Positions 30,075-32,614 of a stretch of 64,000 nt of DNA are shown here, in pieces; positions within the stretch are counted from its first letter, which is position 1, and each line of letters starts with the position of its first letter. The stretch comes from a virus: the IMG/VR virus record IMGVR_UViG_3300042549_004948, positions 1 through 64,000 of that record. The stretch is one strand, 5' to 3'. The translations under genes were made by a program, and so were the position numbers. The notes beneath the pieces are model-generated. The model was not told where the DNA came from. It ran no database searches and saw nothing but the letters and a program-made list of their open reading frames with translations.

Positions 30075-30869
30075 TTAATCTACTAACTTAACAGTATTCG
30101 GAAGTGTTAATAGTTCAATTTCTGTCTCTGGATGCATAATTTTATATGTCTCATAGGTATGGAGGAACATATTGAAGTACTCGTCTAAGGTCTTTTTTCC
30201 TTCAATAATCTCCCAACCGGCTCCTTGCATTTTCTTTCCAGACTTATCAGCTCCTCGTTTTGAAGACTTAAGCCATATGATACCGTTACGATCAACCTTC
30301 TCTCCAAACCTTTCTTCATATGCCTTAGTGTAGGCTGACATTTGTAAGTGATAGCTTTCATGAATTGCATTTGACGTTTTGATATCTAGTACCCACCTTT
30401 GATTATCGATCTCTACAAGTAGATCCAATGTTCCTGAGTATTTATGAGTATCGCTAAACATAAACTCTTCTGATAGGATTAGCTTTGGTTTATAAGTTGT
30501 CCAGAAATCGGTAAAAGATAAAATCATTTTCCATACATGGGTATGATAATTAACATGCCCGGTTGATTCAATCCAGCGAATCTCTTCTCCATTCAAGAAT
30601 TTTTCTATTGCTTCATGAACTTGCGTACCTTCATCGCCGGCTCTACGCATAACAATATCAGCATTATGTCCCATATCTTTTATCCATGTTTCAAAGAACT
30701 GACCTTTAGGAAAATAACCCAAGATAGTTGTAACAGACGGATAGAAAACGCCAGGACTGCGTTGATAATACCTAGAGTCGTGCAATGTTATTTGTCTTAA
30801 TTCAGGATCTGTCTCGACAATTCGTTTTAAGAACTTGTCCTTTTGGATGTTCTTAGATTTTTCAATCAT
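30075..30869 (-). CDS. PD-(D/E)xK exonuclease
   Basis: YPSVTTIL, GTQVHEAIE, YSGTLDL...LDIKTS...QMSAY. Confidence 0.85.
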   Translation of the reverse strand: MIEKSKNIQKDKFLKRIVETDPELRQITLHDSRYYQRSPGVFYPSVTTILGYFPKGQFFETWIKDMGHNADIVMRRAGDEGTQVHEAIEKFLNGEEIRWIESTGHVNYHTHVWKMILSFTDFWTTYKPKLILSEEFMFSDTHKYSGTLDLLVEIDNQRWVLDIKTSNAIHESYHLQMSAYTKAYEERFGEKVDRNGIIWLKSSKRGADKSGKKMQGAGWEIIEGKKTLDEYFNMFLHTYETYKIMHPETEIELLTLPNTVKLVD

Positions 30870-31795
30870 AATAGTTGAAGTTTTTTGAAAAGCAAATCAC
30901 CAAAAGATAGTGGCTTCGCATGATGTAATAGTTTTGTCATTTTATCGAAACCTAAATCAGAAGGATCTTTTCCTTCTAACTCTATTAAGTATACTTCTTT
31001 TCCTAAGTTAAGAAGGTTTTGTGAATAATCTAATGCCTCTTTAAGTGCATCTTTGTCTAGTGCTAAATATACTGTTTTTACATCAGACTCTACTAATTTT
31101 AACATGAGTGACTTAGGAATAGTTTTACCAAATAATGGAATTGCGTTTCTTCTTATCGCTATTGCATCAAATATTCCTTCACAAAGTATAATTGGAATAG
31201 ACCAATTTACGAAATACTCTAGACCTACTAACTCTGATTTATTACATGTAGGAGCATCGTACTTCCTACTTGGATCTTGTTCAAAAGATCTAGCTATAAA
31301 ATAGTTAAGTATCCCATCTTTATCGTATGACGGAATTATAACTCTATTTCTATATCTTCCATTTTTACAATATCCCATGCCATATTTTTGTATATCTTGA
31401 GTAGATATACCTCTTCTCTTTAAATAAGCTAGAGCATGTCTACACTCAAGAGATTTATCTGGGTTAGTTAGTGAAATGAATTCTTCTGGAAGGGTTACTT
31501 TATTAGGTTTTGTGGAATCAATCTTAGTATTATCATTCTGGAAATAAGACTTCATCTCTATCAGTCTTTCTGTAGGAGCTTCTATTTTCTTAAATAGTGA
31601 TACAGGCGTTTTACCTTTAGTAGGAGGGTGACAAGTCCAGCAATTATACTGTCCAGATCTAATATTCACTATTAACTTTGGGTTATGGTGCTTACAAACT
31701 GGGCAATAAAATGCATAATCCATTGTGGTTTTTGAACCTTTGCCTCTTCCTAGAACATTTTCCAGAAGGCCTAAAACAAGCATTTCTTTATCCAT
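30866..31795 (-). CDS. DNA primase (Zn finger + TOPRIM)
   Basis: CPVC...CWTC; YLKRRG; RVIIP; CEGIFD; LALDKDA; KDPSD. Confidence 0.9.
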   Translation of the reverse strand: MDKEMLVLGLLENVLGRGKGSKTTMDYAFYCPVCKHHNPKLIVNIRSGQYNCWTCHPPTKGKTPVSLFKKIEAPTERLIEMKSYFQNDNTKIDSTKPNKVTLPEEFISLTNPDKSLECRHALAYLKRRGISTQDIQKYGMGYCKNGRYRNRVIIPSYDKDGILNYFIARSFEQDPSRKYDAPTCNKSELVGLEYFVNWSIPIILCEGIFDAIAIRRNAIPLFGKTIPKSLMLKLVESDVKTVYLALDKDALKEALDYSQNLLNLGKEVYLIELEGKDPSDLGFDKMTKLLHHAKPLSFGDLLFKKLQLL

Positions 31796-31797
31796 TA

Positions 31798-31880
31798 TCT
31801 AAATATAAGACAAAAAAACGACATAAAAAAATATTTATTAAAAAAAATTTTTTTGTTTCGAATATTTGTTGTATATTAGA
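31798..31880. promoter_or_regulatory. Divergent promoter region at the strand switch
   Basis: Minus strand TCTTATATTTAG before primase; plus strand AAAAAAATTTTTTTGTTTCGAATATTTGTTGTATATTAG; also ATATTTAT at 31831. Confidence 0.6.
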
Positions 31881-31884
31881 TTCT

Positions 31885-32140
31885 GTTAATGTCGTATACT
31901 CAGGATCTATGCCATAGCTTGGTTGAATTCCATGAGTGCGTTTTAGAATGAGTAAGTACTACGACTACCAGGAGCTAAGACTAAGAATAATGCTTCAGGT
32001 ATATAAACATAGTCTAAAGTGAAAGTTTAAAAGAATATCGGTACATCCGACGGTTCAATCCGCTAGGGCTTTTAAATATAAACTAAGATAAAAAACAAAG
32101 TCAATTATCCACTCTAAATATAGGCGAATACCCTATAAAA
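31885..32140 (+). ncRNA. Candidate structured non-coding RNA (or replication-origin structure)
   Basis: No ORF; several nested stems, a possible H-type pseudoknot, a T-loop-like hairpin and a terminal hairpin, directly after a promoter motif. Confidence 0.5.
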
Positions 32141-32151
32141 AATACTATTAA

Positions 32152-32310
32152 ATGGAATTTGAAATAAGTGATAATAAAATAACAGAAGAACAGCTACAAG
32201 CATTGTATATCTATCTATCATTAAATTATGATAGTATGAAAGAAGATGAAAAGGTTGTTTGGTATGAACTAATGAAAAAAATAGATAAAGAATTTAATGA
32301 CTATGACTAA
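32152..32310 (+). CDS. 52-aa hypothetical protein (not in ORF track)
   Basis: MEFEISDNKITEEQLQALYIYLSLNYDSMKEDEKVVWYELMKKIDKEFNDYD. Confidence 0.6.
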   Translation: MEFEISDNKITEEQLQALYIYLSLNYDSMKEDEKVVWYELMKKIDKEFNDYD

Positions 32311-32614
32311 ATTATTGGTATTAGAAGGATGCAAGAAATGCAAAAAATTAAAAGAAGAACTTGATAGTAAAGGAATAGAGTATTCATTAGTAGTTTGTAA
32401 TGATAGTACAACTATTTGTGATGAAGTAGAAGATTTAACCGGAGTTTATCAATATCCTATGATTATACACACCGATAACTTCGGGTCTATTACCGACATC
32501 TTTTATGTTACCGATAAGTACGATCATGTAGGTAAATTACGAAAGTTATCTAATGCCGTAACAGGATTAGGATTTCACTCTATAGATCAATTAATAAGTT
32601 ACATAATAAAGTAG
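32297..32614 (+). CDS. Glutaredoxin-like protein
   Basis: CKKC active-site motif and cis-Pro motif (QYPMI). Confidence 0.8.
   Translation: MTMTKLLVLEGCKKCKKLKEELDSKGIEYSLVVCNDSTTICDEVEDLTGVYQYPMIIHTDNFGSITDIFYVTDKYDHVGKLRKLSNAVTGLGFHSIDQLISYIIK

Follow-up and report, generated by a model that had tools for sequence, protein, structure and literature searches.

The stretch of DNA analyzed here (the window; 64,000 nt) is part of a 162-kb virus record, and its gene content is T4-like as judged from Pfam and PHROG. A primase gene and a small-ORF operon form divergent units, separated by a 356-nt gap (31796-32151). No true intergenic gap in the window is longer, as a previous sequence-only reading had claimed of the non-coding stretch; longer ORF-free stretches obtained with a crude mask fall within one long GTG-start ORF. 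The genes and features flanking the gap or lying in its first part are as follows:

30866..31795, minus strand: DnaG-type primase gene, divergently transcribed (Pfam; PHROG 47 at 4.6e-45)
31802..31877, unstranded: A+T-rich imperfect palindrome of 76 nt with mirror-image divergent promoter-like boxes (inverted repeat I1)
32152..32310, plus strand: small-protein ORF of 52 codons, a conserved family, whose 3' end overlaps the start of the next gene
32297..32614, plus strand: glutaredoxin/thioredoxin-like gene, the second gene of the operon (Pfam PF00462; PHROG 22)

On the plus strand these two genes are followed by an HD-hydrolase-like gene and several unknowns, with baseplate genes from ~37 kb. 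No Pfam or PHROG family was assigned to the 52-codon ORF, and no informative match was obtained for it in the ESM Atlas. The start of the thioredoxin-like gene overlaps the final codons of the 52-codon ORF (32297-32310), which suggests translational coupling of the two. A 20-codon frame from 31889 was considered as a hidden ORF in the gap and rejected, as its start codon is absent in relatives.

The palindrome at 31802-31877 is 76% complementary with zero spacing, and both promoter-like boxes are thus mirror images. The plus-strand box is found at 31869-31877, while the other half of the palindrome faces the primase gene. The plus-strand box is invariant in 35 relatives of the close clade and recognizable in other clades, and it is located 11-14 nt 5' of P1, the first helix of the RNA described below, in most of 54 distinct upstream sequences. 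This agrees with the earlier suggestion that the non-coding stretch starts just after a promoter motif. The palindrome could also double as an unwinding element.

In order to collect relatives of the gap, a primase protein search was used, which recovered 80 viral contigs, and three motif scans of the viral collection contributed divergent members. A covariance model built in this analysis (R1) was then used for the family search and identified exactly one copy per locus in 93 viral loci, with scores of 73-278 bits, as well as a single copy in the window's own 162-kb genome. Where primase identity is 75-89%, the relatives retain 80-90% nucleotide identity across the gap. At the same 17 loci, the RNA shows 85% identity to the window copy vs 80% for the adjacent primase gene and, judged by this comparison, is under purifying selection. 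The same small-ORF family is located 3' of the RNA at every locus with a readable start.

On comparative sequence evidence, the plus strand of 31887-32140 is a genuine structured RNA of ~250 nt. The predicted consensus consists of ten nested helices in three serial domains, with a T-loop hairpin and two pseudoknots. The nested helices are given below, where A5 denotes a model-based alignment of 71 distinct sequences:

31891..31965, plus strand: domain 1, a long irregular hairpin with helices 90-99% paired (A5)
31891-96/31960-65, plus strand: P1, both-side changes in 5/6 pairs (A5)
31897-902/31949-54, plus strand: P2, both-side changes in 6/6 pairs (A5)
31906-09/31944-47, plus strand: P3, both-side changes in 4/4 pairs (A5)
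31911-15/31936-41, plus strand: P4a, both-side changes in 4/5 pairs (A5)
31920-22/31930-32, plus strand: P4b, capped by a 7-nt T-loop-type loop, both-side changes in 1/3 pairs (A5)
31966-69/31998-32001 and 31971-75/31992-96, plus strand: P5 hairpin, 98% paired, with a compensatory change in 2 pairs
32012..32089, plus strand: domain 3, composed of P6a, P6 and a three-way junction with P6b and P6c, identified by covariation
32012-15/32086-89, plus strand: P6a, compensatory change in 4/4 pairs
32026-33/32069-76, plus strand: P6, compensatory change in 8/8 pairs
32038-41/32047-50, plus strand: P6b, invariant
32051-53/32060-62, plus strand: P6c, invariant

The sequence and coordinates given in the sequence-only reading match as described, and the four helices proposed there (P1, P2, P6 and 31966-75/31992-32001, the latter corresponding to P5 with one A-A mismatch and a 16-nt loop) show compensatory changes in relatives. 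P3, P4a, the T-loop hairpin at 31920-32 and the two pseudoknots given below (PK1 and PK2) were absent from that reading. About 60 positions in the RNA are invariant. Invariance extends to P6b (32038-50) and P6c (32051-62), and the comparison therefore neither supports nor refutes either hairpin.

The covariation test among relatives that had been proposed as a check gave a strong result. In A5, 94.5% of the cells are paired and a compensatory change is seen in 34 of the 52 pairs, with a covariation score of 0.362 vs 0.121 for shuffles and ≤0.065 for slid partners. As A5 was fitted to the structure, a plain MAFFT alignment of the close clade serves as an independent check; here the hand-drawn structure is 92.2% paired, with 19 both-side-changed pairs vs 11.1 ± 1.8 in shuffles. 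G-U/U-G cells (281) outnumber A-C/C-A cells (38), which identifies the plus strand as the folded strand and rules out a minus-strand RNA. The sequence-only reading had also named folding against shuffled sequence as a test, and here the single sequence folds no better than its shuffles, with z-scores of -1.44 (plus strand) and +0.13 (minus strand). The evidence for the structure is thus comparative, not thermodynamic. Single-sequence thermodynamics alone would dismiss the RNA as a chance structure, a conclusion that the comparative data overrule.

Two long-range pairings and one local hairpin involve the 3' tail of the RNA:

31979..31982, plus strand: PK1 5' strand, in the P5 loop (partner 32099-32102)
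32099..32102, plus strand: PK1 3' strand, within a conserved A-rich linker (partner 31979-31982)
32064..32068, plus strand: PK2 5' strand, the junction strand between P6c and the P6 3' strand (partner 32131-32135)
32131..32135, plus strand: PK2 3' strand (partner 32064-32068)
32119..32137, plus strand: P7, a clade-specific local hairpin (32119-24/32132-37; clade survey)

The pseudoknot counts given here are from alignments fitted to those same pseudoknot structures. PK1 is 90.6% paired with compensatory changes (A9; dedicated model R3), including pair types AU 59/GC 4 and CG 57/UA 5, and its fourth pair is weak, failing in 20 of 67 scored sequences. PK2 is 99.7% paired, with a compensatory change in 3/5 pairs (A7; dedicated model R2) and 61 double-change cells vs 19.1 ± 3.3. 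Seven types of junction strand were observed for PK2, each sequence having in its tail the exact complement of the type that it carries. In 57 of 63 sequences, 9-20 nt separate the PK2 3' strand from the start codon of the small ORF, most commonly 10-11 nt, and a few members have 23-33 nt; in the window, the strand ends 16 nt 5' of the start codon. A terminator scan revealed no terminator-like site on the plus strand between the RNA and the ORF.

The H-type pseudoknot previously proposed for the P5 loop (31978-83/32010-15) has to be abandoned. All six pairs form in the window only, close relatives carry uncompensated changes, and the pairing is absent in divergent clades; 32012-15 pairs with 32086-89 (P6a) instead. 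A third pairing, 31934-38/32110-14, was also dropped: a single compensatory case was seen by eye (L153), the core bases are already engaged in P4a, and 31934-38 lacks positional homology in the L146 clade. A swap test of the pseudoknots based on crude duplex energies was too blunt and was discarded.

The final hairpin described in the sequence-only reading corresponds to P7; it is real, but restricted to some clades and in competition with PK2. The 5' arm of P7 is a copy of the junction strand, and P7 and PK2 compete for the 3' strand that they share. P7 was found in the window-type, L003-type, L141, L146-type, L161 and L142 lineages, and was not found in ~25 distinct sequences. A conserved tail segment at 32110-32119 matches the version of the PK2 3' strand present in divergent clades and is still able to pair with the junction strand via one G-U; from its sequence, it resembles an earlier copy of the PK2 3' strand. 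The tail also contains one copy (32113-32122) of an exact 10-nt direct repeat, the other copy being located just upstream of the primase start (31798-31807). The repeat is A+T-rich and possibly of chance origin.

A natural variant of the RNA is found at L145:1095-1276, where the plus-strand promoter box and the entire domain 1 are deleted, while P5, domain 3 and both pseudoknot strands are kept, 33 nt from the primase start. Sister phages with ~70% primase identity have the same order of primase and small ORF, separated by a gap of ~140 nt without the RNA. The RNA is accessory in nature, as sister phages with the same gene order are without it. In the sister loci (L049-L080; e.g. L050:2860-3000, minus strand), a different conserved leader of ~100 nt precedes the same small ORF. 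By eye, this leader contains a weak hairpin and a U run just 3' of the promoter, which were not called by the consensus terminator scan, and a pyrimidine/purine hairpin ~20 nt before the small ORF.

Two motif scans of 185,579 prokaryote genomes (one per species) gave zero copies, which speaks against a host-derived copy, and no blastn match to the RNA was obtained in the phage GenBank collection. One 40-nt look-alike of the P6b-P6c-junction stretch, L157:4837-4876, was rejected as a member since it scores only 14.5 bits and folds differently. L157 is an unrelated, more G+C-rich phage contig, in which the purines resembling the junction make up a Shine-Dalgarno-like sequence located 8 nt 5' of a start codon.

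Infernal searches against Rfam, the other check that had been proposed, gave no family match: no Rfam 15 covariance model reached its gathering score across the 64-kb window, and at E≤10 only chance-level snoRNA and miRNA matches were seen in 31700-32300 and in nine divergent loci. ARAGORN identified no tRNA or tmRNA in the window. Together with the strong covariation, these searches bear out the earlier view of a phage ncRNA outside known classes, and the predicted RNA is a previously uncatalogued family as compared with Rfam 15. A catalogue of 8,495 short RNA candidates has been drawn from IMG/VR (PMC10690425) and may contain fragments of the RNA. A group I intron (RF00028) was rejected, as the model gave no match, the pairing 31978-83/32010-15, which looks like the P7 of such introns, is not conserved and the element is intergenic.

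The RNA shares several properties with the FMN and cobalamin riboswitches (RF00050 and RF00174), including the leader position and a size of ~150-250 nt, covarying stems around multi-helix junctions whose junction bases are invariant, a 7-nt hairpin loop of T-loop type closed by G-C, and an element at the 3' end, close to the start codon, that a tertiary pairing connects to the core. The T-loop hairpin and the P6b-P6c stretch recall the FMN P2/P5 and P6 sequences and also parts of cobalamin riboswitches, which we take to be a lead only. The RNA is nevertheless not a member of either family, as the covariance models fail to match and the helix order differs. A search of the full 162-kb genome with the FMN model yielded nothing at E≤10, although the same search was positive in 10 of 14 control genomes, and the FMN hallmark, two pseudo-symmetric halves with six helices meeting at one junction that P1 closes, was not observed. 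No match at E≤10 was obtained with RF00174 and its variants in 31700-32300 and the nine divergent loci. Unlike in the FMN and cobalamin systems, neither riboflavin nor cobalamin genes lie downstream. What the RNA does display is a conserved covarying aptamer-like fold in a sense-strand 5' leader, the generic mark of a riboswitch.

Taken together, the RNA is best explained as a new, riboswitch-sized and cis-acting translational leader of riboswitch type or operator type, a reading to which we assign a probability of about 0.5. Region 31887-32140 would form the 5' leader of the early operon mRNA encoding the small ORF and the thioredoxin-like protein, with the conserved promoter-like box probably driving transcription from a few bases 5' of P1; both ends of the RNA are placed from its sequence. 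Through PK1 and PK2, respectively, the P5 loop and the domain 3 three-way junction are joined to the 3' tail, and docking of PK2 may pull the ribosome landing zone against the folded core, whereby translation initiation would be lowered or otherwise tuned. In clades having the P7 arm, the local hairpin may represent an alternative, undocked state. The start codon itself is unpaired in both the PK2 and the P7 states, and the effect on initiation is thus an argument from sterics; as P7 is absent in many lineages, a two-state switch is not universal. Candidate triggers are a small ligand, a protein (e.g., the small ORF product) or another RNA.

Such a leader has counterparts in the T4 gene 32 leader pseudoknot and the gene 43 and RegA operators, which also belong to a T4-type phage and to the structured 5' leaders of early or middle mRNAs, with a pseudoknot 5' of an A/U-rich initiation region; control of initiation is presumed here. 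The T4 operators are small, consisting of one hairpin or pseudoknot, and bind the product of the regulated gene or of a dedicated gene. The RNA described here differs in being about five times larger, and the downstream genes are unrelated. Tentatively, the RNA may represent an orphan class of riboswitch specific to phages, or else some other RNA of ribozyme-like complexity that senses a ligand or tRNA, with no cellular counterpart in the scanned prokaryote genomes. If so, expression of the early thioredoxin/HD-hydrolase operon would be set by a host metabolite or stress signal.

It is rather doubtful that the RNA is a stable trans-acting ncRNA that stands alone, produced either by transcription from the early promoter or by excision from the leader. 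An RNA of this kind might act on a host protein or tRNA by binding or sequestering it via T-loop modules, and the position before the ORF would then be incidental. The size, invariant junctions, T-loop hairpin and two pseudoknots do recall large ncRNAs of unknown function, and the conservation of the RNA exceeds that of the neighboring gene; against this, no terminator-like site follows the RNA, it keeps a constrained spacing from the start codon of a single ORF family, and it occurs in one copy per genome with a constant leader position. The RNA could also be a constitutive structural cap at the 5' end, one that senses nothing and serves only to shield the early mRNA from 5'-end-dependent decay or to enhance initiation, which would fit a P1 beginning within a few bases of the presumed transcript start and the lack of the alternative P7 arm in many lineages. 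The 5' stabilizers known to us are simple hairpins, and ten helices, two pseudoknots and ~60 invariant positions far exceed the needs of protection, making this improbable.

We consider it quite improbable that the RNA acts in cis on RNA polymerase, modifying it so that the early operon is transcribed with processive antitermination in the style of HK022 put or Bacillus EAR. Like HK022 putL/putR and EAR, it would be a cis-acting folded RNA directly after a phage early promoter, and as the first element transcribed it occupies the place where the hairpin and U run were seen by eye, outside the calls of the terminator scan, in the sister phages. The HK022 put RNAs consist of two stem-loops of ~70 nt. 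In contrast to put and EAR, there is no downstream excess of terminators, with 6 terminator-like sites in 15 kb vs 5.3 in shuffles, and the RNA is positioned relative to the start codon, a fixed spacing that antitermination leaves without explanation. No Rfam antiterminator family matched.

Finally, an origin element, either a structured pre-primer transcript in the style of ColE1 RNA II or an ssDNA fold recognized by the neighboring primase, is very improbable, and the origin-priming transcript suggested in the sequence-only reading found no specific support. The RNA does adjoin the primase gene at the coding-strand switch, beside the A+T-rich palindrome, and like RNA II it would be a structured transcript next to replication functions. 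The minimum of the cumulative GC skew lies near 32 kb, but the GC and AT skews both turn at ~32000, which coincides with the coding-strand switch, and the GC-skew analysis proposed as a check can therefore not be read as an origin signal. No iterons were found. The G-U bias and the T-loop/pseudoknot architecture point to an RNA in a translational context, and unlike RNA II the sense-strand leader continues into an ORF, with a constrained distance to its start codon, and is missing in sister phages with the same primase context. An origin primer role is thus unlikely.

To our knowledge, large and heavily conserved RNAs with several pseudoknots are rare, and most of those solved are riboswitches, ribozymes or protein scaffolds. 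The RNA is represented by ~70 distinct sequences, its secondary structure is well determined and its genetic context is clear. It has so far been found only in phage contigs and thus lends itself readily to ligand screening and structural studies. If the RNA is only a leader operator, it would constitute a well-supported family for RNA catalogues, and the annotation of ~90 contigs would be corrected. Should it respond to a host signal, phages would have evolved a regulatory device of their own, not one copied from cells.
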